Shown here: positions 202 to 13,853 of the stretch, piece by piece
Position numbering within the stretch: position 1 is the first letter of the stretch
Layout: every line of letters begins with the position of its first letter
Source: Gemmatimonadales bacterium
GTDB lineage: Bacteria; Gemmatimonadota; Gemmatimonadetes; Gemmatimonadales; GWC2-71-9
NCBI GenBank assembly: GCA_037045245.1
Contig: JBAOHR010000011.1
Span: 64,302-128,301, forward strand
DNA: 64,000 nt
Reading direction: 5' to 3'
Notes under the pieces: model-generated
Told to the model about the DNA's origin: nothing
The model's input: the letters and a program-made list of their open reading frames with translations, nothing else
Databases searched by the model: none
Position numbers and translations under genes: made by a program

Positions 202-1747
202 TGGGCTTGTAGACCCGGATCACCATGCGCGACGTCAGCGGCGTCGCCACCACGCCGGCGCTGCTGGCCACGGTCCGCTCGATCGAGAAGCCCGCCTCCA
301 CCGGCATCTTCCGCACGCCCTCCCGATTCACCCCGTCATGCACGAAGCTCACGCCGAGCCCGACGCGCGTCGCGTTGGCGCTGGTGCCCTGCACGAGGGT
401 TGTCAGGTCGAGCCCGGCGATCGCCTGGGTCGGGTCGGCCCAGTTCAGGGCATCGGCACCGCGGCGCTGATACTGGACCAGCGCCGTGAGCGCGAAGTGC
501 GGAACGATCCGGTAGAACGGCTGGGCCGTGATGGTGAAGACGTCGCCCGGGTTGCGGGACAGCAGTGCCGTGATCCGGGCAGGGCGGAAGAGCTGGTCAC
601 GCGTGGCGGGCTGTTCGTCAGCGGTGCCTGCCAGCTGCAGCGTCATCAGCGCACTGCCGCGCAGCCCGAATCGGCCGCGGCCGAGCTCGACGATGCCCCC
701 GACTTCGACATCCGGCTGCCCGTCACCGGAGCCCTGGTCCAACAGGTACCCGGGGCGGGGCGCGGTGCCGGTCGAGAGCCGCGCGCCTGCGCGGGCCCAC
801 ACGCCCAGCCAACTGGCGTCGCCGGGCGCCCCACGGCGCAGCACCTCCGCCGTCAGTCCGAGCTCGACGTCGCCGAGCCCGACGGGCGGAATGTCCTCCG
901 GCTCGGTGATCCCGAAACCGGTGGGGGCCGCGATCAGCGCGTCCAAATCGGTCGCAGTGAGCACCGCCGCGGGAAGCGCCGGGGCCGCGCTGATGGTGCG
1001 GCCCCCGAGCGCCCCGCCAAGGGTGGCGTCGAGCGCCGTGATCGCCGCAAGCACCGCACTGCCGTCGGTGCTCGACGCCACGGGCAACACCGCGGAGCCG
1101 CGCACCGGATCGGCGAGCAGCTGAAAGAGTCCGTCGCGCAGCGTGGTGCCTTGCCCCAGCGTCTGCTGTGCCAGGGCGAGCTGTGTCGGATTGGTGAAGG
1201 CGCCGCCGGCAATCCGGCCGCTCAGCGCAGTCAGCGCCTCGTCGAACGCCGTGAAGAACGCTGTCGTCTGCGCGATGCCGGCGGGCGTGCCCAGTGCGGC
1301 ATCGGCCGGGTTGAGCCCGACGTTCGCGTCGGTTGCCACGGGACGCAGCTGCAGCTGGGTGCGGGTCGAGACGATCGGCACAGAGGCCGAGAACGTGAGC
1401 CGCCGCGTGATGCCGACGGCCAGGCCGAGCGTGGCGACGCCACGCTGTTGTTCCGCGATCGCCGAGACACTCCCGAGTGTCAGGGGGCCTGGCGCCCGGC
1501 CCAGCACCCGCGCAAGGGCGGCCTCGGTGTTGCCGACAAGCGGCGTCGCCGCAGCGTCGAGGGTCGGGTACGAGAGCCGGCTGCCGAGGGGACGGCGCGT
1601 CCCATCGATGCGCAGTTCGTCGGTCGGGAAGAAGCCCCCGCCGAGCTCGATCCGGAGGACACCCGCCGGGGCGGTGAGCAACGGGAGCTGAGCCGGAATG
1701 GCACCCAGGGGGGCCAACAGGAGGGCAGGGAGCAGGCGACGGATCAT
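188..1747 (-). CDS. Exported hypothetical protein (signal peptide, Ala/Gly/Thr/Leu-rich; possible outer-membrane or surface protein)
   Basis: Part of ORF 188..2098(-). I place the start at ATG 1747 (MIRRLLPALLLAPLGAIPAQ, signal-peptide-like) because the longer ORF would run antisense through the tRNA-Leu and the pilin gene. No family recognised. Confidence 0.5.
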   Translation of the reverse strand: MIRRLLPALLLAPLGAIPAQLPLLTAPAGVLRIELGGGFFPTDELRIDGTRRPLGSRLSYPTLDAAATPLVGNTEAALARVLGRAPGPLTLGSVSAIAEQQRGVATLGLAVGITRRLTFSASVPIVSTRTQLQLRPVATDANVGLNPADAALGTPAGIAQTTAFFTAFDEALTALSGRIAGGAFTNPTQLALAQQTLGQGTTLRDGLFQLLADPVRGSAVLPVASSTDGSAVLAAITALDATLGGALGGRTISAAPALPAAVLTATDLDALIAAPTGFGITEPEDIPPVGLGDVELGLTAEVLRRGAPGDASWLGVWARAGARLSTGTAPRPGYLLDQGSGDGQPDVEVGGIVELGRGRFGLRGSALMTLQLAGTADEQPATRDQLFRPARITALLSRNPGDVFTITAQPFYRIVPHFALTALVQYQRRGADALNWADPTQAIAGLDLTTLVQGTSANATRVGLGVSFVHDGVNREGVRKMPVEAGFSIERTVASSAGVVATPLTSRMVIRVYKPIIGR

Positions 1748-1809
1748 CGCGGTCGAAGATAGCGGAATCGACGCACCGTGGCCTGTGGTGGCATATTCCA
1801 GTCGACCTG

Positions 1810-1892
1810 GCTCGGGTGGCGAAATGGCAGACGCAGGGGACTTAAAATCCCCAGGGGGCAACCCCGTCCCGGTTCGAGTCCGGGCCCGAGCA
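1810..1892 (+). tRNA. tRNA-Leu (anticodon UAA), class II with long variable arm
   Basis: Cloverleaf folded by eye: acceptor GCTCGGG/CCCGAGC plus discriminator A; D arm GCG-AAATGGCAGA-CGC; anticodon arm GGGGA-CTTAAAA-TCCCC (TAA); variable arm GGGGGCAACCCC; T arm CCCGG-TTCGAGT-CCGGG. Confidence 0.9.
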
Positions 1893-1916
1893 TCCCCCAG
1901 AGGCGGAGAATCCAGC

Positions 1917-2366
1917 ATGAAGGAGTCGCGGCGCGGCTTCACCCTGATCGAACTGCTCGTGGTCGTGCTGATCGTCGGCATCCTCGCAACGATCGCGCTG
2001 CCGCGGTTGCAGTACGCCAAGGAGAAGGCCTTCCGGGCCTCCATGGTGTCCGACCTGCACAACCTGCTTTCCGCGCAGGAAGGCCATTTCTCGGTCACCG
2101 GAGACTACGCCGGTGGGATCGGGCCGACCCAGGTGCTGGTCGCGGGCAGCGCCGGGCGAGTGGCCCTGCTGCCGAGTCCGGGCAACCAGATCACCGTCAC
2201 CCTCCGCCCCGGCGCCACGCCCCTCGCATCGGGCGGCTGGTCGGCCGAGGTGACGAATCCTCGGATCACCTCGGGGGTGCAGTCGAAGTGCGGCATCTTC
2301 ATGGGGGTGCTGGCGAACTCGCCCAATGCGGCGGTGACGCAGGCTGGCGTGCCGGCCTGCTACTAG
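1917..2366 (+). CDS. Type IV pilin-like protein (prepilin-type N-terminal cleavage/methylation motif), paralog 1
   Basis: MKESRRG|FTLIELLVVVLIVGILATIALPRL is a class III signal peptide with Gly-1, Phe+1 and Glu+5. There is a C-terminal Cys pair (..KCGIF..VPACY). An AGGCGGAGA RBS-like sequence lies upstream of ATG 1917. In frame with ORF 1698..2366. Confidence 0.8.
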   Translation: MKESRRGFTLIELLVVVLIVGILATIALPRLQYAKEKAFRASMVSDLHNLLSAQEGHFSVTGDYAGGIGPTQVLVAGSAGRVALLPSPGNQITVTLRPGATPLASGGWSAEVTNPRITSGVQSKCGIFMGVLANSPNAAVTQAGVPACY

Positions 2367-2854
2367 GGGCGTCTCGCCCCGCCCACGGTCGCCGCCTCTC
2401 CCAGGAACGAATCGCTGTTCATCCGATCGGTCAGTTGGAGCGTGATCCGACCCGGCGTCGCCTCCAGGAGGTAGCCCGTGTCGGTCCGCCGGTAGCTGAC
2501 GCCAGCTTCGACGGCTCCGGCATCGGCGAGGGACCTCGGCAAGCGACCCCGCGTGCGTCGGTAGTCCTCGATCCGCGACCGTTCCAGATAGAGCGCCACC
2601 CGGGCGCGCTCTTCGGCGGCGGCCGGGCTCAGCGGTGCCGGCGTGCCTGGCGCGAAGACGGCCGCCGGTCTGGCAACCCAGATCCATGCCAGCAGCCCGG
2701 CCGCCGCGAGACCCACCGCGATGGTGGCCGGTCGGGTCCCTTCGGGCCGACGCGACTTCTGTCGACGTCGCGCCTCGTCGGCCTCGGCCCGCTGGGCCTC
2801 CGCCACCTCCTGCAGCGCTTCGGCAAGTTCCCGTCGACGATCGCTCTGGCTCAT
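2363..2854 (-). CDS. Single-pass membrane protein, pilin-partner family member 1 (unrecognised family)
   Basis: I chose ATG 2854 (MSQSDRRRELAEALQEV...), which is preceded by a GGAGGA RBS. Charged N-terminus, one TM helix (TIAVGLAAAGLLAWIWVA), then the conserved ectodomain ALYLERSRIEDYRRTRGRLPRSL...TDRMNSDSFLGE. Paralogous to 3504..3992 and 4496..5191. Confidence 0.6.
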   Translation of the reverse strand: MSQSDRRRELAEALQEVAEAQRAEADEARRRQKSRRPEGTRPATIAVGLAAAGLLAWIWVARPAAVFAPGTPAPLSPAAAEERARVALYLERSRIEDYRRTRGRLPRSLADAGAVEAGVSYRRTDTGYLLEATPGRITLQLTDRMNSDSFLGEAATVGGARRP

Positions 2855-2978
2855 TCTTCCTCCGGCGTGAACGGGGAAATCTTGCATGCTCGCGGCTCCG
2901 AGGCCAGAATGCGGGGGCGCTCCGTGCCTCGGCGCCACCGCGCGGGCCGTTTGCCCCGGTGGTGTCGTTGCCTCCAGG

Positions 2979-2994
2979 GTGGCCAGATCACGGC
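2979..2994 (+). promoter_or_regulatory. Possible sigma-54 (-24/-12) promoter upstream of pilin paralog 2
   Basis: TGGCCAGATCACGGCA has GG and GC at the spacing of the TGGCACG-N4-TTGCW consensus, matching 8 of the 12 specified consensus positions. It lies 67 nt upstream of ATG 3061. Eye match only. Confidence 0.25.
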
Positions 2995-3060
2995 ATTCCC
3001 GTTCACCTTGCGCCGGCCGAGGCAGGCCGGATTTCACGCACCGCTCCGGCGGGAGGTAGC

Positions 3061-3510
3061 ATGGCGCGACGAGCTTCGGGATTCACACTGGTCGAACTGC
3101 TCACCGTTCTCACCATCATCGGCGTTCTCGCCACGATCGCGATCCCGCGCCTCCGCTACACCAAGGAGCGCGCCACCCGGGCGTCGATGGTGAGCGATCT
3201 CAAGAATCTGGTGGCGCTTCAGGAAGGGTACTTCTCCGCAGTGAACGACTACGCGGCGGGACTCACCGCCGGCCCGGAAGTGCTCGTGAAGGGGGGGGCG
3301 GGGAGGATCTCGTTCGTGCCGAGCGCGGGGAACACCATCACCCTGACCCGCCGGGGTCCCAACAACGCGAATGGCTCCGGGTGGTTTGCGACGGCGAAGA
3401 ACCCGCAGGTCACGACCAAGAGTGCGGACGTCTGCGGCATCTACATCGGCAACAAGGCCTATGCCCCCAATGCAGCGGTGCCCGGCCCCGGAATCCCCGC
3501 CTGTTACTGA
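3061..3510 (+). CDS. Type IV pilin-like protein, paralog 2
   Basis: MARRASG|FTLVELLTVLTIIGVLATIAIPRL prepilin motif. Same length (149 aa) and same C-terminal Cys...PACY as paralog 1. GGGAGG RBS before ATG 3061. Confidence 0.8.
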   Translation: MARRASGFTLVELLTVLTIIGVLATIAIPRLRYTKERATRASMVSDLKNLVALQEGYFSAVNDYAAGLTAGPEVLVKGGAGRISFVPSAGNTITLTRRGPNNANGSGWFATAKNPQVTTKSADVCGIYIGNKAYAPNAAVPGPGIPACY

Positions 3511-3992
3511 ACGACCGGCCGGGGCAACCGGCCGAGCGCGTCCCCGAGGAACGAATCGGCATCCATCTGATTGGTGAGTTCGAGGCCCTTTCCAGGAAAT
3601 GCCGGGACCATGACGACGAAGTCGGGTGGCGTCGGGACGTAGGTCACTCCCTCCTCGACGTCCCCGGTCTCGCTCAACTCGCGCGGTAGCCGGCCCCTTT
3701 CGGCTCGGAATTGCTCGATGCGCGCGCGTTGCAGGTAGAGGGCATGGCGCGCCAGAGCATCTCGCTCGCTCTCGGTCGGAATCCGAGGGGCACCCGGCCC
3801 GAAGATCGCCGCCGGCTGCGCAACCCAGACCCAGCCGAGCCCTGCCCAGACGACGACCAGGGCCAGCAGTGCCGCCCGCTGTGGGAGGCCTCGCCGCGGT
3901 TTCGCCGCCGGGGGTGAGGACGGTCGCTGGTGCTGGGCGACGACGGCCTCCTTCGCCTCGGCGAGCTTCCGTTGCGTGTCCAGGTCATCCAT
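3504..3992 (-). CDS. Single-pass membrane protein, pilin-partner family member 2
   Basis: ATG 3992 (MDDLDTQRKLAEAKEAV...) is preceded by a GGGGAGG RBS. TM helix ALLALVVVWAGLGWVWVA, then ALYLQRARIEQFRAERGRLPREL...TNQMDADSFLGD. Paralog of 2363..2854. Confidence 0.6.
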   Translation of the reverse strand: MDDLDTQRKLAEAKEAVVAQHQRPSSPPAAKPRRGLPQRAALLALVVVWAGLGWVWVAQPAAIFGPGAPRIPTESERDALARHALYLQRARIEQFRAERGRLPRELSETGDVEEGVTYVPTPPDFVVMVPAFPGKGLELTNQMDADSFLGDALGRLPRPVVQ

Positions 3993-4042
3993 GCCGTACC
4001 TCCCCTCGCTGCAGTGTATTGCCACTGGCGCGCCGTGATGTG

Positions 4043-4483
4043 ATGATCCACGTCATGGAATATGCCTCCGCTCCCTCGTCGCCGCCGTGGCGCTTTCGGC
4101 TGATCGCCCTGACGGCGCTCTCGGTCGTCGCGATGTTGGCTGTGGTGACGCGGGCGGCGAGCGCCCGTCGGCGCGATGCATCGGCCCGCGCCCAGGTGAT
4201 CGGTGAACTCCGACGGCTCGACGATCAGCAGACCGCCTGGGAGGCGCGGCATGGCCTCTTCGCCCGGCGGATCGGCACGGTCGCCGACGACACGACCCTG
4301 GCCTTCACGCCGACACCGGGCGTCGAGTTGCGATTCGATGCGACCATTCCGTCGAGCTGGAGCGCGATCGCCACCACGGACCGGTTGCTGGCCGCGCCGA
4401 GGCAGTGCGGGGTGTACCGTGGTCGCGCCGAGGCCGCGCCGCACCGCGCCGTGTTGACGCCTGGCGAAGTGGCCTGCTGGTAG
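4043..4483 (+). CDS. Degenerate pilin-like protein (pilin-type globular region and C-terminal Cys pair, no prepilin cleavage motif)
   Basis: MIHVMEYASAPSSPPWRFRLIALTALSVVAMLAVV... has an N-terminal hydrophobic helix but no G-F-T-L-x-E. The C-terminal half aligns by eye with pilins 1 and 2 (..FTPTPGVELRF..SWSA..CGVYRG..APHRAV..GEVACW versus ..CGIYIG..APNAAV..GIPACY). The start could be ATG 4043 or 4055. Confidence 0.5.
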   Translation: MIHVMEYASAPSSPPWRFRLIALTALSVVAMLAVVTRAASARRRDASARAQVIGELRRLDDQQTAWEARHGLFARRIGTVADDTTLAFTPTPGVELRFDATIPSSWSAIATTDRLLAAPRQCGVYRGRAEAAPHRAVLTPGEVACW

Positions 4484-4495
4484 CTTCCCCCGCCG

Positions 4496-5191
4496 CTACC
4501 GGCGCAACTGTTCGAGCCCGCTCCCAAGGAAACTGTCCGCGGCCATGGTGCTGGTCAGTGACAAGCGGAGCGGTCCCTGTCTCCCCTCAAGCCGATACGC
4601 GCGCTGCCCGGTCACGACCAGCGTGAGCGACGTATCAACAACGCCGACGTCGGCGAGCCGCGGCGGCACGCGTCCCTCGGCGCGGACGAGGGCGTCCACC
4701 CGCGCGCGGGCCAGCCAGAGTCCATAACGCAGCGAGGCCTCCGCCAGCGCGGGTGCCGGCGCCCACGCATGGTCAGCGGGCCCGCGGGCGATGGCCGGCG
4801 GTGCGAGCAGCAACCACCCGACGACGAGCCACCCCCCAAGTGCGGCCAGCAGCCATCGGGTCGGCACCGGGCGGCGGGAGGCGAGGACGGTACTCCCGGG
4901 CGTCGATTCGGCTGCGGCGCGACGACGACTCTGCGCGACGACTTCGCCGAGCGCATCCGAGAGCGTGGAGGAGGGCGCGATCGCACCCGGCTCGAAGGGG
5001 GGCGGGGGCACCACCGTACGGGGTGCGACCGGAATCGCTCGCGGTGGCATCACGGACGCTGCGTCGGGTGGAGCGATCTCCGCGGGGACATCCGCGGCGA
5101 CGGGGAGCGCCTCGATCGCGGGCTCTGGCGCCGCGCCGTCGACACGCGGCGAACGCGACTTCCCCCGGCCGCGCGACGACCGCCTAGGCAT
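4496..5191 (-). CDS. Single-pass membrane protein, pilin-partner family member 3 (long Pro/Ala-rich N-terminus)
   Basis: TM helix WLLAALGGWLVVGWLLLA, then LWLARARVDALVRAEGRVPPRL...TSTMAADSFLGS, the same architecture and motifs as members 1 and 2. Overlaps the upstream response regulator gene by 8 nt, so they probably form one operon. Confidence 0.55.
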   Translation of the reverse strand: MPRRSSRGRGKSRSPRVDGAAPEPAIEALPVAADVPAEIAPPDAASVMPPRAIPVAPRTVVPPPPFEPGAIAPSSTLSDALGEVVAQSRRRAAAESTPGSTVLASRRPVPTRWLLAALGGWLVVGWLLLAPPAIARGPADHAWAPAPALAEASLRYGLWLARARVDALVRAEGRVPPRLADVGVVDTSLTLVVTGQRAYRLEGRQGPLRLSLTSTMAADSFLGSGLEQLRR

Positions 5192-5558
5192 TCTGGGGCG
5201 ATTCCCCCGCCAGTGCGCGGCCGACCTGCTCGGGGAAGGCGCGGATGTCGATCGGCTTGGTGATGTAGCCGTCGAACCCGGCAGCCATCGCGCGCTCCCG
5301 GTCGCCGGCCATCGCGTGCGCCGTCAGGGCCACCACGCGCAGCGCCGCGTATTCCGAGGCGCGGATCTCCGCGAGCAGGGCGAAGCCATCCTTGCCGGGC
5401 ATCTGGATGTCCATCAGGACGAGGTCCGGGAGCTTCGCCGCCAGGGTCGCGAAGAGTTCCTCGCCACCCATCAGGCCGACGACTTCGTGCCCCTTCAGCG
5501 TGAGCAGGGTGCGGAACAGCTTCATGTTGTCGGGACTGTCTTCGACAATGAGGATCAT
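5184..5558 (-). CDS. Single-domain response regulator (CheY-like receiver)
   Basis: MILIVEDSPDNMKLF...LVLMDIQMPGKDG...ALTAHAM...GYITKPI contains the acidic pocket, phospho-acceptor Asp, Thr and Lys of receiver domains. Confidence 0.85.
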   Translation of the reverse strand: MILIVEDSPDNMKLFRTLLTLKGHEVVGLMGGEELFATLAAKLPDLVLMDIQMPGKDGFALLAEIRASEYAALRVVALTAHAMAGDRERAMAAGFDGYITKPIDIRAFPEQVGRALAGESPQNA

Positions 5559-5565
5559 CGGTGGG

Positions 5566-7737
5566 TCACTCCATCCTGGTGCGCTTCAGCACGGCGCGCA
5601 CGCGCGCGACCAGCGATCGCGGCTGCACCGGCTTGGTCAGGTAGTCCTGGGCGCCCAACTCGAGCGCCTGTGATTCAGTGTCGTCGGTCCGCGCCGTGAG
5701 CATGATCACGGGCAGGGCCGCCGTCGCGACGGAGGCGCGCAGTTCCTCGAGCACGCCGAGGCCCGTCAGGCGCGGCATGTCGTGATCGAGGAGGATCAGG
5801 TCGATGCCCTTGGTCTCGACCGCCGTGAGCGTGTCGAGGCCGTCCGCCGCCTCGATCACCACGAAGCCTTCGCGCTCCAGCACCGTGCGGACCAGGCGTC
5901 GCATCTGGGCGTCGTCGTCGGCGAGGAGGATCGTCGCGCCCTTGCCCTCGGCGTCGGCCGTGCCGGCCCCCGCCCAGCCTGCCGGCGTCGCCACTGGGGC
6001 GGCCGCAATCGGCGCGGCGGCGTGCTCGGCGCGCGCGGCACGCTCCTGGGTCTCGCCGAGCACGCGGTGGATTTCGTCGTAGGTGGTCTGGCCGCTCCAG
6101 TAGCGGATCAGTCCGCTCTCCCACAACGTGCGCATGCCGTGCGGCCGTGAGGCGTCGAGGATCGCCTGCTGTGGAGCTCCCGCCTCGATGAGGCCGCCCA
6201 CGGCGCCCTCCACCGGAAGCAGCTCCATGACTGCGAGCCGCCCCTTGAAGCCGGTGCCACCGCAGCTCTTGCACCCGGCACCGCGCTTCGGCGCATAGAC
6301 GCCGGCGTAGCCCGCGGGGGGACGCGCCTGCTCGGGAACCTCGTCGAGCGGCAGGTCGACGGCGCACTGCGGACAGACACGGCGGACCAGGCGCTGCGCC
6401 ACCACGCCGCGCAGCACGGTGCCGAGCTTGAACGAGTCGATCCCCATGTCGCGGAGGCGGACCAGCGCGGAGACGGCGTCGTTGGTGTGCAGCGTCGAGA
6501 AGACGAAGTGGCCGGTGAGGCCGGCCTGGATCGCGATCGTCGCAGTTTCACCATCGCGGATTTCGCCGACCAGCACGATGTCCGGGTCCTGGCGGAGCAC
6601 CGAACGCAGCGCGGTCGCGAAGGTGAAGCCCTGCGCGTCGTTCACCTGCATCTGCGAGATCCCGTCGACGTCGTATTCGACCGGGTCCTCGACGGTCACG
6701 ATGTTGACCTTGCCCGTCTTCAGGTGATTCAGGATGGCGTACAGCGTGGTGGTCTTGCCTGAACCGGTCGGGCCGGTCACCAGCAGCATCCCCTCGCGGT
6801 GCGAGAGCATCCGCATCAACACCGCCTCTTCCTCCGGGGGGAGGGCCAGCGCGGGGATCGACGCGCGGAGATTCGACTTGTTCAGGATCCGGATGACGAG
6901 CTTCTCGCCGCGGCGGGCGACGGGGGCGGTGGCGACGCGCATGTCGACGAACTGGCCGCCGACCTTGAGCGAACTGCGCCCGTCCTGGGGCGTCATCGAG
7001 TTCGTGACGTCGAGCCCGGCGATGATCTTCACGCGACGGACGAGCGAGGCCCCCGCCGCCTCCGGGAGGCGCATCACCTCGCGGAGGATGCCGTCGACGC
7101 GATAGCGCACCACGACGGCCCCGCCCTCGATCTCGGAATGGATGTCGCTGGCACCGGCCTGCACCGCGTCGGAGATCATCGCATCGACGAGCTTCGTCAT
7201 CGGCGCGTCGAGGGCGGGATCGCGTTCCTCGGGCGAGTCGCTGATCTGCACCTCGACCGACGTCGGCGTCAGCCCCTGCAGCAGCCGGTTGATCGAATTC
7301 TCGGGACGGTAGAACTCGTCGAGCTTGTCGCTGATCGCCGATGGCGACGCCACCTCGAGCTTCACGTCGCGCCCGGTGAGGAAGCCGAGGTCCTGCTCGG
7401 CCGCGAAGTCGCGCGGGTCGCAGGTCGCGATGCGGACGGTCTTTTCGTCCAGCGCGAGGGCGACCACGTGATACTTCCGGGCCGCGGTCTCCGGGAGCAC
7501 CGCGACGGCGCGCGGTTCGGCCGCGCCGACATCGGCCACCGGCAACCGGAAGCGGCGCGCCAGTTCCGCGCAGATGGCAGCGTCGGTCGCCAGCCCCGTC
7601 TCGACCACCGATCGCCACAGGCGCCGGTCCTTGATCGAGGCGAGCACCGGGAGGCGCTCAGCGGGAAGCAGACCGGCCTCGACCAGATAGGGGCCGATCC
7701 AGGCATCCGGGGCTGCGCCGACGTCGGGTGCGGTCAT
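5566..7737 (-). CDS. GspE/PilB-family secretion/pilus assembly ATPase fused to a C-terminal response-regulator receiver domain
   Basis: N-terminal T2SSE_N-like domain, Walker A GPTGSGKTTTLYA, VGEIRD, and the tetracysteine CPQC...CKSCGG typical of GspE/PilB. After an Ala/Pro linker comes ILLADDDAQMRRL...LILLDHDMPRLTG...MLTAR...DYLTKP, a complete REC domain. Confidence 0.9.
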   Translation of the reverse strand: MTAPDVGAAPDAWIGPYLVEAGLLPAERLPVLASIKDRRLWRSVVETGLATDAAICAELARRFRLPVADVGAAEPRAVAVLPETAARKYHVVALALDEKTVRIATCDPRDFAAEQDLGFLTGRDVKLEVASPSAISDKLDEFYRPENSINRLLQGLTPTSVEVQISDSPEERDPALDAPMTKLVDAMISDAVQAGASDIHSEIEGGAVVVRYRVDGILREVMRLPEAAGASLVRRVKIIAGLDVTNSMTPQDGRSSLKVGGQFVDMRVATAPVARRGEKLVIRILNKSNLRASIPALALPPEEEAVLMRMLSHREGMLLVTGPTGSGKTTTLYAILNHLKTGKVNIVTVEDPVEYDVDGISQMQVNDAQGFTFATALRSVLRQDPDIVLVGEIRDGETATIAIQAGLTGHFVFSTLHTNDAVSALVRLRDMGIDSFKLGTVLRGVVAQRLVRRVCPQCAVDLPLDEVPEQARPPAGYAGVYAPKRGAGCKSCGGTGFKGRLAVMELLPVEGAVGGLIEAGAPQQAILDASRPHGMRTLWESGLIRYWSGQTTYDEIHRVLGETQERAARAEHAAAPIAAAPVATPAGWAGAGTADAEGKGATILLADDDAQMRRLVRTVLEREGFVVIEAADGLDTLTAVETKGIDLILLDHDMPRLTGLGVLEELRASVATAALPVIMLTARTDDTESQALELGAQDYLTKPVQPRSLVARVRAVLKRTRME

Positions 7738-7897
7738 GAGGGTCCGTCGTGGTGTGTGAGGCGGGGGGATCGTCGGCTACGTTGTTCCGGGATCCCGAGA
7801 AAGATACGATTCTCGGTGGTCAAGGTGAAACCCTTCTTGCGACGCGGAGTGCCTTCTGCCAGTCGGTCATCGCTTCCACGTCTCGGGAACGCATCGC

Positions 7898-9139
7898 GTG
7901 CCGGGCGACAAAAGCATCACCCACCGCGCCCTGATGTTCGCGGCCCTCGCCCCAGGCCACTCGGTGGTGGGCGGGGCGCTGACGTCGCTGGACGCTCGGT
8001 CGACGGCCCGCGTCCTTCGCGCCCTCGGGGCGACGATTTCCCCGCTTCGCGCCGACTCGGTGGTCGAGATCCGCGGCCGTCGGCGCCTGACCACCCCCGC
8101 CACTGTCCTGCAATGTGGCAATTCCGGGACCACGGCTCGACTGATGCTGGGCATCCTGGCGGGGCACCGCTTCCCGAGCACCCTCTCCGGCGATGCCTCG
8201 TTACGGCGGCGGCCGATGCGTCGGGTGACGGCCGCCCTTGCCGAGATGGGGGCCAAGATCGACGACGGGGGCCACGACGGGCTGCCGCTCACGATCCGTG
8301 GCGGGCGGTTGGGTGCCCTGAAGTGGAACCTCCCGATCGCCTCGGCCCAGGTGAAGAGCGCGCTGCTGCTGGCCGGCGCCGTCGGCGGCGTGTCGGTCGC
8401 ACTGCGCGAAACCGCCGTCACCCGGGATCACACCGAGCGGATGCTTGGTGCGAACGGGTTCGACGTATCACGAAGCGATGGCTGGCTGCGTCTCGAGCCG
8501 ACCGGGGCCTTCCACCCCGTCGCGATGCAGGTGCCCGGGGACCCGTCCTCGGCCGCCTTCCTCCTCGCCGCCATTCTGTTGGCGGAAGGCGGCGAGGCCC
8601 GGGTGGCCGGCGTCGGGCTCAATCCCACGCGAACCGGCTATCTCCACGTGATGGCGCGCATGGGCGCCACGATCGCCGCCTGTGACGAGGAGGCACCCTT
8701 CGGCGAGCCGATCGGCGACCTGGTGAGCTCGCCCGCGCCCCTGCGGGGCGTGGTGGTCGAGCCAGACGAGGTCCCCGGGATCATTGACGAGATCCCGATG
8801 CTCGCCTGCCTCGCGGCACGGGCGGCGGGAGAGTCCCGATTCCGTGGCGTCGGCGAGTTGCGCGTCAAGGAGAGCGACCGCCTCGCCCTCATCGTCCGCA
8901 ACCTGCGCGCGGTGGGTGCCGAAGCGGAGGCCGTGGGGGATGACCTGCTCGTGCGCGGCGGTCCGGGGCCCTTCCGCGGCCGCGTGGTGACGGACGGCGA
9001 TCACCGGATCGCGATGGCGTTCACGGTGCTCGGGCAGACCCGCGGCTCGCGCATCGTGGTTGACGATCCCGACTGTGCCGCGGTCTCCTTTCCGAACTTC
9101 ACCGGGCAGCTCGCCGCGCTCTACGGGCGGGCTGGGTGA
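7898..9139 (+). CDS. aroA: 3-phosphoshikimate 1-carboxyvinyltransferase (EPSP synthase); 5' end uncertain
   Basis: (V)PGDKSITHRALMFAAL... is the EPSPS signature and runs full length through the C-terminus. The first canonical start is GTG 7898, right at the PGDKS motif, but EPSPS-like sequence (FHVSGTHRV) continues in frame upstream without an ATG/GTG/TTG. Confidence 0.85.
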   Translation: MPGDKSITHRALMFAALAPGHSVVGGALTSLDARSTARVLRALGATISPLRADSVVEIRGRRRLTTPATVLQCGNSGTTARLMLGILAGHRFPSTLSGDASLRRRPMRRVTAALAEMGAKIDDGGHDGLPLTIRGGRLGALKWNLPIASAQVKSALLLAGAVGGVSVALRETAVTRDHTERMLGANGFDVSRSDGWLRLEPTGAFHPVAMQVPGDPSSAAFLLAAILLAEGGEARVAGVGLNPTRTGYLHVMARMGATIAACDEEAPFGEPIGDLVSSPAPLRGVVVEPDEVPGIIDEIPMLACLAARAAGESRFRGVGELRVKESDRLALIVRNLRAVGAEAEAVGDDLLVRGGPGPFRGRVVTDGDHRIAMAFTVLGQTRGSRIVVDDPDCAAVSFPNFTGQLAALYGRAG

Positions 9140-11816: not shown

Positions 11817-13853
11817 CTACTCCGTCAGCATCTTCGCCGCACAGTCGGGGCACAGTCCGTGGGAGAACTTCGCCTCGCTGCGCCGGGCGATGTAGCTCTC
11901 CATCTGTTCCCAGTGCCCGTGTTCGTCGCGGATCTTGTGGCACCAGGAGCAGGTCGGCAGCAGCCCCCGCAGCGTGGTGACCGCAGCCTTGGCTCGCAGG
12001 AGTTCGTCGAGCAGTCGCTCGCGCTCCACTTCGGTGGCGCGTCGCGCGGTGAGGTCGTGGCTCAGCGTGAGGACGCCCGAAATTTTCCCCTGGCCGTCTC
12101 GCAGCGGCGTGAACCGCGTCAGGTAGAATCGGGCGCGCGCCTCCGAGGGCGCCTGGTATTCGAACTCAAGCGTCTCCGGCTCGCCGCGCTGCAGCACCCG
12201 GCCCAGGGCACCGGCGAAACGCTCACGCGCCGCAGGGTCCGCGAGGACGTCGGCCGGCGTCTGTCCGAGGAAGTGCGACGCCGGCCGGCCGACGGCCCGC
12301 GAGTAGGCGGGGTTGACGAAGTTGATGCGGCCATCCCGGTCGAACCGCATCAGGAGGTCTTCGACGCCATCGACGATCACGCGCAGCTCGGCCTCGCGAC
12401 TCGCCAGCGCTTCCGCGGCGCGGTGCAGCTCGGTGATGTCCCGGGCGATCACGAACACGCTGGTCCCGCCGTGGACCGGATCCGGTTCCGGCGTGAAGCG
12501 CCCCTGATAGCGTGACATCGTCCCGTCCGGCGCCGGGTAGTCGTACTCGACGACGACCGGCCGCGACGTGACCACGGCCTCCTGGATCGCCGCCATCCAC
12601 GTCGCCTTGAAGCGCTCGTCGAGCGGGATCTCCGCCGCGATGCGACCGAGCAGCTCGTTGGCCGGTGCGCCGGAGAGCCTCGCCGCCGCAGGGTTCAGGT
12701 ACGTCACCCGGAACTGCGCGTCGATCTGCACGATCACGTCGTCGGCCGCCTCGACGAGCGTGGCGAACTCCGCCTCGCGCCGGCGCAGCATTCGCTCCGA
12801 CTCGCGGACCGCGGTGAGGTCGCGGGCAAACTCGACGACGCCGGTGATGGCACCGGACCCGTCGCGTACCGGCGTGAGATTCACCGAGAAGAAGTGGCGG
12901 ACGCCGTCACCCATCAGGTGCTCGTACTCGAAGAGCTGCGGGGCACCAGTGGTCGCCACGGCACGGAGCATCCCGATCCACCGCTCGACCTCGATCGGGC
13001 CGAAGAGGACGTCGCCCACCGGTCGCCCGACCACCTCGTCCGCGGGGCGGCCGAGGGCCCCGCAGCCGGCCTGATTGACGTAGCGCACGATGCCATTGGG
13101 GTCGTACCAGAAGACGCCGTCCTCGGCACCGTCGAGGATGGATCGCAACTCGGCTCGGATCGACGCGCTCTCGCGCTCGGTCGTCTCGAGTCGCGCGCGC
13201 TCCGCGCGTTCCTGCTGGCGGACGCGGACAAAGAGGCCGCTGCCGAAGGCGCCGAGCAGCACGGTCATGCCGAGGAGAAAGAGGCTGCGGCGGCGCGCCA
13301 CCTCGAGCGAGGCGTCGAGCGCCTCCCCGTTCCGCTGGGACGCCTCGACCACGGCGGCGGAGACCAACTCGGCCGTGGCAATGAGACTGTCACCAAATCG
13401 GGGACGGGAGAGCGCGTTCCAGCGCTGTCGTGCGCTGTCGGGCGGGAATCGATCCAGCATCGAGTCGACGAGGGCCGAGCGCTCGGCCAGTTGGCGCGTC
13501 CAGATGCCGGTTCTCGACTGCTCGGCCCGGCTCGTCCGCGTGGCGGCGAGCGAATCTCCAAGGGCGCGGAGAAGGCGTTCCGCCCTGGCTGCCCTGACGC
13601 GGGTCACCGGATCGGGCTCGAGGAGATAGTCGCGAATTGCGACCTGGCTGGTGTGCATCGCGAAGACGAAGTCGTCGGCCTTGCGTCGGATGCGGTCGAG
13701 GTCGGCGAGGCGATCGACCTCGCCCCCGGCTCGGTGGAGGTCGCGAACCGCGACACCCCCGAGCAGCACCAGCGGGACGACGATCAGGAGCAGGGCCAGC
13801 CCGATCCAGGAACTGGTCAGGGCGGGGGGCGGGCGGAGACGCGTGTTCGCCAC
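11817..13853 (-). CDS. Membrane-anchored triple-PAS sensor protein with a C-terminal Cys/His-rich module and no recognisable kinase or cyclase output
   Basis: N-terminal TM, a roughly 170-aa extracytoplasmic region and a second TM. Three PAS-like segments follow (..[22 protein letters not shown].., ..[23 protein letters not shown].., ..[23 protein letters not shown]..). The C-terminus is [48 protein letters not shown] start at 13853. Confidence 0.8.

Follow-up and report, generated by a model that had tools for sequence, protein, structure and literature searches.

A family of membrane proteins encoded beside type IV pilin genes and a receiver-fused PilB-family ATPase in Gemmatimonadota

Gene Organization of the Pilin Cluster

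The DNA analyzed here (64,000 nucleotides of a Gemmatimonadales bacterium; GenBank assembly GCA_037045245.1, contig JBAOHR010000011.1, positions 64,302 to 128,301; hereafter the window) contains three pilin-family genes (pil1 to pil3), each converging on a gene for a single-pass membrane protein (the partner; par1 to par3). Adjoining these pairs are genes for a CheY-like response regulator (cheY) and for an ATPase of the PilB/GspE family that ends in a receiver domain (pilB-REC). The unit made up of PilB-REC, frequently CheY, a partner, and a pilin recurs in other assemblies labeled as Gemmatimonadota and in metagenome contigs. A preliminary description, made from the letters of the window alone, had outlined these eight genes and their three convergent pairs; all were recovered by open reading frame (ORF) listing and translation, and BLASTP within each set agreed that the pilins are paralogs of one another, as are the partners. 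The genes and one neighboring feature are as follows (aa, amino acids; GC3, GC content at third codon positions).

1917..2366, + strand: pil1, type IVa-like prepilin, 149 aa; PF07963 (E 1.4e-8), TIGR02532, N-terminal match to PilA_Myxo; GC3 0.91
2363..2854, - strand: par1, partner protein, 163 aa; without Pfam or NCBIfam match
3061..3510, + strand: pil2, type IVa-like prepilin, 149 aa; PF07963 (E 3.1e-7), TIGR02532, BLASTP match to pil1
3504..3992, - strand: par2, partner protein, 162 aa; 45% identical to par1
4043..4483, + strand: pil3, degenerate pilin-family protein; BLASTP matches to pil1 (E 3e-9) and pil2 (E 4e-8)
4496..5191, - strand: par3, partner protein, 231 aa; BLASTP matches to par1 and par2
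5184..5558, - strand: cheY, single-domain CheY-like response regulator, 124 aa; PF00072 (E 1.4e-26)
5566..7737, - strand: pilB-REC, PilB/GspE-family ATPase with receiver domain, 723 aa; PF00437, PF05157, PF00072
1810..1892, + strand: tRNA-Leu(taa), found with ARAGORN; a neighbor with no shown membership in the pilin system

The region is 67-73% GC, and because GC3 lies between 0.79 and 0.91 in all eight called frames, each of them looks coding. In BLASTP comparisons, pil1 and pil2 share 54% identity (154 bits), and pil3 shares 27% with pil1 (42 bits) and 25% with pil2 (39 bits); the par1-par2 match scores 112 bits, and par3 is 36% identical to par1 (70 bits) and 35% identical to par2 (66 bits). 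The copies are at most 75-77% alike at the DNA level, so the triplication is old rather than recent. The 3' ends of pil1 and par1 overlap by 4 nucleotides (CTAG) and those of pil2 and par2 by 7 nucleotides, and a gap of 12 nucleotides lies between pil3 and par3. As had been reported, the par3 ATG overlaps the stop codon of cheY by 8 nucleotides (ATGCCTAG), and cheY itself follows the ATPase gene.

Recurrence of the Partner-Pilin Pair

Hidden Markov models (HMMs) built in this analysis were used to locate partners, pilins, PilB, and CheY in 17 independent loci, namely the window, L001, L004-L017, and L019 (L002 and L003 duplicate L001, and L018 duplicates L017). A pilin-family gene lies immediately 3' of the partner gene in 23 of the 25 cases found in these loci. 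The remaining two partners are in L014, at the contig end, and in L019, where 357 nucleotides of repeat-containing DNA precede the contig end. In L019, about nine tandem copies of the heptamer TAGGACA (991-1101) directly downstream of the partner gene occupy the place in which other loci have the pilin gene, and the contig ends 218 nucleotides later.

Two orientations of the pair were found. Thirteen pairs are convergent (three each in the window and L001, one in L009, and two each in L010, L011, and L015), and the five assemblies that carry them besides the window are labeled Gemmatimonadetes, Gemmatimonadales, or Gemmatimonadota. Four of these five share the aroA-cmk-rpsA neighborhood or a pil1 neighbor of 5xx aa, and the convergent layout and its two to three pair copies were seen only in the window and these five assemblies. 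Ten pairs in nine loci (L004-L008, L012, L013, L016, and L017) are co-directional with the partner first, mostly with overlapping partner stop and pilin start codons. Strict convergence, which the preliminary description had taken as a property of the family, is thus confined to part of it. The neighborhood survey that it had proposed, asking whether homologs are always convergent with a pilin gene and near a pilB-REC gene, bears out the adjacency to a pilin and, in 10 of the 17 loci, the proximity of PilB-REC, and does not bear out the orientation.

In the ten loci with an adjacent PilB-REC, a CheY gene stands between it and the partner in eight; L016 and L019 have no CheY gene. Partner genes overlap or abut cheY or pilB-REC. 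The link of the motor and CheY to the partner, first read from the window, agrees with a retrieval made from the motor side: L017, which was reached from a PilB-REC 61% identical to that of the window, has CheY, partner, and prepilin genes in one direction beside aroA-cmk-rpsA. The motor link is not obligatory in gene order, because the pairs of L004-L006 and L008 have no PilB gene within 10 kilobases (kb). In these four loci, which form one clade, the pair follows a gene for an ABC-F ATPase (two ABC_tran domains and ABC_tran_Xtn), and one of them holds two tandem pairs. The gene thiC was observed within ∼3.5 kb downstream in three of the four (L004-L006). In L016, one apparent operon (1092-9071) encodes a protoglobin-STAS sensor, a STAS protein, an RsbW-like kinase, a SpoIIE phosphatase, and a hybrid histidine kinase with an Hpt domain, the last directly upstream of the genes for PilB-REC, the partner, and a prepilin; here the pilus motor seems to receive input from a phosphorelay as well as from a partner-switching module.

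The pairing is kept across several chromosomal neighborhoods, including aroA-cmk-rpsA, the ABC-F ATPase gene with thiC, the STAS/kinase operon, and purE. The pairwise identity matrices of partners and pilins are correlated (r = 0.84), and none of 5000 Mantel permutations reached this value; such co-variation fits pairs that duplicate and diverge as units, with a contribution from shared phylogeny. It may be asked whether the pairing has any functional meaning, since a partner could be a chance neighbor of the pilin gene, or the triplication a recent event unique to one strain. All of the evidence comes from a single phylum, as this explanation would allow, but the adjacency outlasts changes of orientation and of chromosomal neighborhood and holds across partners that are only 25-35% identical. 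The paralogs of the window are themselves 25-54% identical, and orthologous triplets are present in another assembly, so that the recent, strain-specific triplication that the preliminary description had allowed for does not describe this locus. We consider an accidental association extremely improbable.

The ancestral unit was likely PilB-REC, CheY, partner, and pilin, transcribed in one direction beside aroA-cmk-rpsA. In the lineage of the window, we infer that the pilin was inverted and the resulting convergent pair copied to give two or three diverged copies, and that the motor-proximal pilin (pil3) lost its prepilin motif, as seen in the window, L001, and L010, with a similar form in L015. 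Convergence is therefore a trait of this lineage and not a defining property of the module. An invertible switch for the convergent pilins was considered and rejected as unsupported: only short, imperfect inverted repeats are present (20 pairs in 3.6 kb), no recombinase gene was found near the pilin pairs, and no opposite orientation was seen within the convergent clade. One 15-nucleotide inverted repeat (2945-2959 and 3519-3533, 93% complementary) brackets pil2 in this 70% GC DNA; given twenty comparable pairs over 3.6 kb and no recombinase nearby, it probably arose by chance.

The Partner Protein Family

The three partners of the window matched no Pfam or NCBIfam model at E ≤ 1, no Pfam model was matched by more than one member in a set of 132 from the family, and searching PDB sequences with a partner profile yielded nothing meaningful. 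The profile-HMM searches that had been suggested as a check thus gave no match to a well-characterized family outside pili in Pfam or NCBIfam, and together with the adjacency to pilin genes this supports the earlier view of the partner as an uncharacterized, pilin-dedicated membrane protein. A narrow partner alignment retrieved three Gemmatimonadales loci only, and a word-indexed search recovered only 13 relatives. In an exhaustive profile search, E ≤ 1e-3 was reached by 919 clusters (at 50% identity), of which 336 had E ≤ 1e-10. Every taxon-labeled member is assigned to Gemmatimonadota or Gemmatimonadales. By sequence, the partners form a real and sizeable protein family for which Pfam and NCBIfam hold no model.

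Each partner has a single hydrophobic segment, with three to seven Lys/Arg among the 15 residues before it and one after it, which places the N-terminus inside the cell; each is thus a predicted bitopic inner-membrane protein. Ahead of the transmembrane helix are ∼40-110 cytoplasmic residues, and in most partners ∼40. In par1, a cytoplasmic helix (residues 3-32) and the transmembrane helix (42-66), both as modeled by AlphaFold2, are followed by a periplasmic domain with a predicted pilin-like fold (77-156). Alignments reveal conserved motifs in all three regions. The cytoplasmic helix is conserved across the paralogs at R7, L10, A13, L14, V17, and R22 (par1 numbering), the transmembrane helix ends in W..(A)RPA and is followed by a proline-rich linker, and the periplasmic domain has near-invariant residues at R85, L90, R92, G103-R-L-P106, and D148-S-F-L-G152. 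The larger par3 has a basic, proline-rich N-terminal extension, and extensions of the same type occur in P0033, P0038, P0050, and P0055. A cleavable signal or prepilin site was sought and rejected: no N_methyl motif was found at E ≤ 1 in par1-3 or at E ≤ 0.01 in the 132 family members, and the alignments have no conserved AxA site. Because there is also no conserved Gly before the transmembrane helix and no Glu at +5, the partner is not a prepilin.

The full-length AlphaFold2 model of the partner has a predicted local distance difference test score (pLDDT) of 74, and a domain-only model from a 132-sequence alignment reaches a pLDDT of 86.6 and a predicted TM-score (pTM) of 0.75. In both, a long and a short helix precede three antiparallel strands, and a further helix forms the C-terminus; the G-R-L-P motif is in a loop between the long helix and the three-stranded sheet, and a proline-rich break parts the transmembrane helix from the long one. 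The top Foldseek match in the PDB is, for both models, a Shewanella type IV pilin (4d40_A; for the domain-only model, probability 1.00, TM-score 0.55/0.62, root-mean-square deviation 3.0 Å over 77 columns, E-value 0.12), followed by Neisseria PilE and PilV; no PilN, PilO, or GspM structure is among the 50 PDB matches listed. Sequence homology between partners and pilins was considered and rejected, given a profile-profile (hhalign) probability of 0.9% against the local pilins. Because the Foldseek E-value is weak and the hhalign comparison is not significant, we describe the periplasmic domain as having a predicted pilin-like fold, which could reflect convergence or a generic alpha/beta motif, and not as a pilin homolog. 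The suggestion that the partner is a surrogate for a minor pilin is in keeping with this fold, yet a protein with so long a cytoplasmic N-terminus and no cleavage site would not be expected to enter the filament.

Some partner homologs have an in-frame N-terminal extension ahead of the usual start, in which a helix-turn-helix (HTH)-like segment (..QIAEAMDLSKSGLYALIRP..) occurs along with a zinc-ribbon-like CxxC...CxxC motif. The carriers are five cluster representatives (P0205, P0206, P0215, P0228, and P0229; L006, 10001-10867), two of which represent 17 and 27 member sequences. The HTH and the zinc ribbon have marginal Pfam support (E 0.03-0.3), and the extension is confined to one sub-clade. 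It is the main support for another reading, in which the partner, tethered in the membrane, would monitor or regulate the pool of pilin: the head and transmembrane helix would sense unassembled cognate pilin, and the cytoplasmic N-terminus would relay this to CheY or PilB-REC, with DNA as the target in the HTH-like variants; PilS, which senses PilA, and the ToxR/TcpP-type regulators offer the closest analogies. The conservation of the cytoplasmic helix across paralogs is consistent with such a role, and so is the order of the genes, as the partner is tightly coupled to cheY, lies upstream of the pilin as regulators often do, and in the window lineage faces a pilin in its own, opposite transcription unit. 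Apart from the marginal profile scores and narrow distribution of the extension, however, most partners have no recognizable signaling domain in their short cytoplasmic part, and a regulator duplicated one-to-one with each pilin would be unusual. We view a sensor role as a possible one, if on the unlikely side.

The Pilins

The prepilin motif as defined by PF07963 and TIGR02532 (a short basic leader ending in Gly, Phe or Met at +1, Glu at +5, and some 20 hydrophobic residues) is present only in pil1 (RRG|FTLIELL) and pil2 (ASG|FTLVELL). A C-terminal Cys pair occurs in pil1, which is 81% identical to its L001 ortholog, and is also kept in pil3. By its homology to pil1 and pil2 and this common Cys pair, pil3 belongs to the pilin family. 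It has no N_methyl match in Pfam or NCBIfam and lacks Gly-1, Phe+1, and Glu+5; its N-terminus reads ..SPPWRFRLIAL.., with the transmembrane helix retained, and prepilin peptidase is predicted to leave it uncut. The counterparts of pil3 in L001 and L010 share the N-terminus ..PPWRFRL.., and that of L015 is similar. Of the three pilin-like proteins first described, all are confirmed as members of the family, and the third is without the prepilin motif. As the L001 ortholog has 142 aa, the true start of pil3 is probably the ATG at 4055, which gives the same length. No Shine-Dalgarno sequence is evident ahead of this ATG, and the pil3 mRNA may therefore be leaderless or nearly so. A sigma-70-like site (TTGCCA-17 nucleotides-GATGAT, within 4019-4055) ends at 4047, just before this codon.

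The loss of the cleavage motif from pil3, which extends to four or more genomes, bears on another reading of the partner, namely as a non-extractable pilin mimic within the machine that would serve as base anchor, terminator, or inhibitor. Such a mimic would pair with the first or last pilin subunit and be locked in the membrane by its cytoplasmic N-terminus, and the pil3/par3 pair would be a fully membrane-locked version. The pilin-like fold modeled for the periplasmic domain is consistent with this, as are the lack of a conserved Gly before the transmembrane helix, the missing Glu+5, and the proline-rich break between transmembrane and long helices, where the alpha-1 helix of a pilin is continuous. 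Yet the partners have no sequence homology to pilins, the conserved cytoplasmic helix is left without a reason, and it is hard to see why an inhibitor would be translationally coupled to the pilin that it targets. On balance, we find this quite improbable.

The Receiver-Fused ATPase and CheY

PilB-REC matches PF00437 (T2SSE; E 9e-121), PF05157 (MshEN, N-terminal; E 2e-16), and PF00072 (C-terminal; E 5e-29), and it has a Walker A motif (GPTGSGKT) and the CPQC and CKSC motifs of a tetracysteine zinc site. As its scores fall short of the equivalog cut-offs for PilB (TIGR02538; 471 against 676 bits) and for GspE (TIGR02533; 497 against 630 bits), we name it a PilB/GspE-family ATPase with receiver domain. 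At the positions of D12, D13, D57, T87, and K109 in Escherichia coli CheY, its receiver domain has D, D, D, T, and K, and the cheY product has E, D, D, T, and K. Both receiver domains therefore appear catalytically canonical, with acidic pocket, phospho-acceptor Asp, Thr, and Lys all kept, and the control of pilus assembly by phosphorylation, as had been proposed, is plausible from these residues and from the hybrid kinase with an Hpt domain that is encoded next to PilB-REC in L016.

Nearly all of the best 120 PilB-REC homologs (to ∼59% identity) also contain PF00072, and those with a taxon label are all Gemmatimonadota. A metagenome scan with an alignment of the PilB receiver domain returned mostly generic receiver domains, and only L019 among its hits belongs to the system. 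Two metagenome contigs have a PilB-family ATPase directly followed by a receiver match (L028, 356-2476; L074, 8315-10390), and no member of the partner or pilin families was detected on either contig, with a flank of 10 kb on each side in L074. No description of a receiver domain fused to PilB was found in a review of PilB or in the wider literature searched, of which coverage was limited.

Neighboring Genes and Remainder of the Window

The coordinate 1810, at which the preliminary description had begun its region, is the first position of the tRNA-Leu(taa) gene and not of the pilin cluster. The 24 nucleotides between the end of this tRNA gene and the start codon of pil1 offer no obvious space for a promoter of pil1 alone; the tRNA gene is a neighbor of the cluster in L001 as well. 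It decodes UUA, a rare codon in a genome of ∼70% GC. Control of the bldA type by the adjacent tRNA-Leu(UAA) was considered and rejected, as none of the eight cluster genes has a TTA codon.

On the other side of the tRNA gene is a 510-aa protein with a signal peptide and no Pfam match (188-1720, - strand), which could be an outer-membrane protein. Conserved counterparts of 519 aa (L001) and 521 aa (L015) lie beside pil1, and the module has none in L016 and L017; the protein was rejected as a part of the module, being syntenic only in close relatives. A large multi-PAS protein (11817-13853, - strand), in which Pfam finds no kinase domain, has a Cys/His-rich end (...HGLCPDC), and its position near the cluster is conserved in L001 and L015. 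An ORF in the unrelated locus L074 closes with a similar motif (..FSHGICPSCADKV..).

Pfam scans of ∼40 high-GC3 ORFs (0.2-64 kb, a few short stretches excepted) found no T2SSF/PilC (GspF), Peptidase_A24 (PilD), PilM, PilN, PilO, PilP, PilQ, or secretin in the window, in agreement with what had been noted from the sequence. Besides the pilin cluster, the scanned ORFs are housekeeping genes only, including aroA, cmk, rpsA, acyl-CoA carboxylase subunits, rpsB, tsf, frr, dxr, rseP, pnp, mreB, a PBP2-type penicillin-binding protein, rodA, hisS, and proS.

Proposed Role of the Partner

From the gene neighborhoods and the modeled fold, we propose that the partner is a pilin-specific assembly adaptor or primer that works with a motor under phosphorelay control, a proposal that we hold to have about an even chance of being correct. 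The partner would remain in the membrane as the adaptor or primer of its cognate pilin, which would dock on its pilin-like head and transmembrane helix, while the conserved cytoplasmic helix would contact PilB-REC and/or CheY on the motor side. Through both receiver domains, a phosphorelay would control the timing of pilin entry into a type IV filament machine and, in genomes with several pairs, could also select among the pilins. The platform protein, peptidase, and secretin of this machine would be encoded elsewhere in the genome.

Several observations weigh against an adaptor. Its proposed function is derived from gene neighborhood and a predicted fold; the fold is small, and with the weak Foldseek E-value and the non-significant hhalign comparison, the resemblance to pilins could be generic. 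The convergent, overlapping 3' ends in the window uncouple expression of partner and pilin, which is odd for a stoichiometric helper, and the HTH-like and zinc-ribbon extension fits a regulator better than an adaptor. In addition, one clade has pairs without a nearby PilB gene, and PilC, PilD, and secretin genes were found in neither the window nor any flank examined.

A more specific proposal, which we regard as fairly unlikely, combines this coupling with the mimicry discussed above: partners would be membrane-locked pilin mimics that each couple the receiver-fused PilB to one pilin, such that the phosphorelay picks the pilin to be polymerized. In a stronger form, PilB-REC, partner, and pilin could constitute a reduced filament system without the canonical alignment proteins. 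If the membrane-locked mimic proved true, it would represent a new class of filament component and a signal-dependent switching of fiber composition.

Whichever mechanism applies, the locus defines an unannotated family with a genomic rule of one partner per pilin, and the recurrent pairing points to a new type of pilin-specific helper protein. It makes testable what small pilin-accessory proteins do, and whether a pilus motor may be switched directly by phosphotransfer rather than via separate CheY-like proteins. As some lineages couple the pair translationally and others have it in convergent overlap, these genomes also provide a natural experiment.

Comparison With Known Systems

Most of what is known about type IV pili comes from Pseudomonadota, Myxococcus, cyanobacteria, and Firmicutes, and no study of them in Gemmatimonadota was found in the literature searched. 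In its general plan, the partner resembles the PilN/PilO, GspM/PulM, and GspL proteins, which likewise have a short cytoplasmic N-terminus and one transmembrane helix, with an alpha/beta domain after a helix on the periplasmic side. PulM is reported to bind the major pseudopilin and PilN binds the cytoplasmic protein PilM, which is the same adaptor logic as that proposed for the partner. The partners, however, match none of the PilN, PilO, or T2SSM models of Pfam, and the 50 Foldseek matches listed are led by pilins and include no structure of this group, whose periplasmic fold is ferredoxin-like, (alpha-beta-beta)x2; moreover, PilN, PilO, and GspM occur once per machine, whereas the partner occurs one-to-one with each pilin. 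With PilA and GspG, the partner domain shares a modeled long helix, a loop (here with G-R-L-P), a three-stranded antiparallel sheet, and a C-terminal helix, but the partner differs in having no class III signal peptide, Gly-1, or Glu+5, and its transmembrane and head helices are not continuous.

A two-gene arrangement is also found in Geobacter, where adjacent genes encode a split pilin: PilA-N provides the pilin helix, and PilA-C is a second, membrane-associated protein that provides or complements the globular part. The pilins described here differ in being full length with their own globular domain, and the cytoplasmic N-terminus of the partner should prevent its entry into a filament. For the motor, published work describes CheY-like control of PilB localization or activity by PilG/PilH in Pseudomonas, PATAN regulators in Synechocystis, and DrdR in Xanthomonas. 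In the present system, by contrast, a receiver is fused to the C-terminus of PilB, and a gene for a second, single-domain receiver follows.

The closest described concept is that of the TfpX/TfpY/TfpZ/FimB accessory cassettes, which were overlooked in the initial statement that no pilin-specific, paired partner had been described. These cassettes are present in P. aeruginosa groups III-V (TfpX/TfpY/TfpZ), with FimB-like proteins in Dichelobacter, Neisseria, and Acinetobacter, and TfpY, encoded beside pilA, binds major and minor pilins, is absent from the fiber, and promotes assembly (PMC11841053). TfpY thereby offers a precedent for the role proposed here. The partner is likewise a small inner-membrane protein whose gene forms a cassette with a major pilin gene. 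TfpY-like proteins, known from Pseudomonadota, have three N-terminal transmembrane helices, 235-245 aa, and two periplasmic beta-sheet domains, and their genes lie downstream of pilA behind a terminator (PMC11841053). The partner, by comparison, has one transmembrane helix, 160-230 aa, and a single domain modeled as pilin-like (a helix and three strands), and its gene, in Gemmatimonadota, is upstream of or convergent with the pilin gene and often in an operon with the ATPase. We do not assign the partner to the TfpY family, from which it is set apart by architecture, and regard it as a candidate small pilin-accessory protein with a similar, cassette-like association with the pilin gene.

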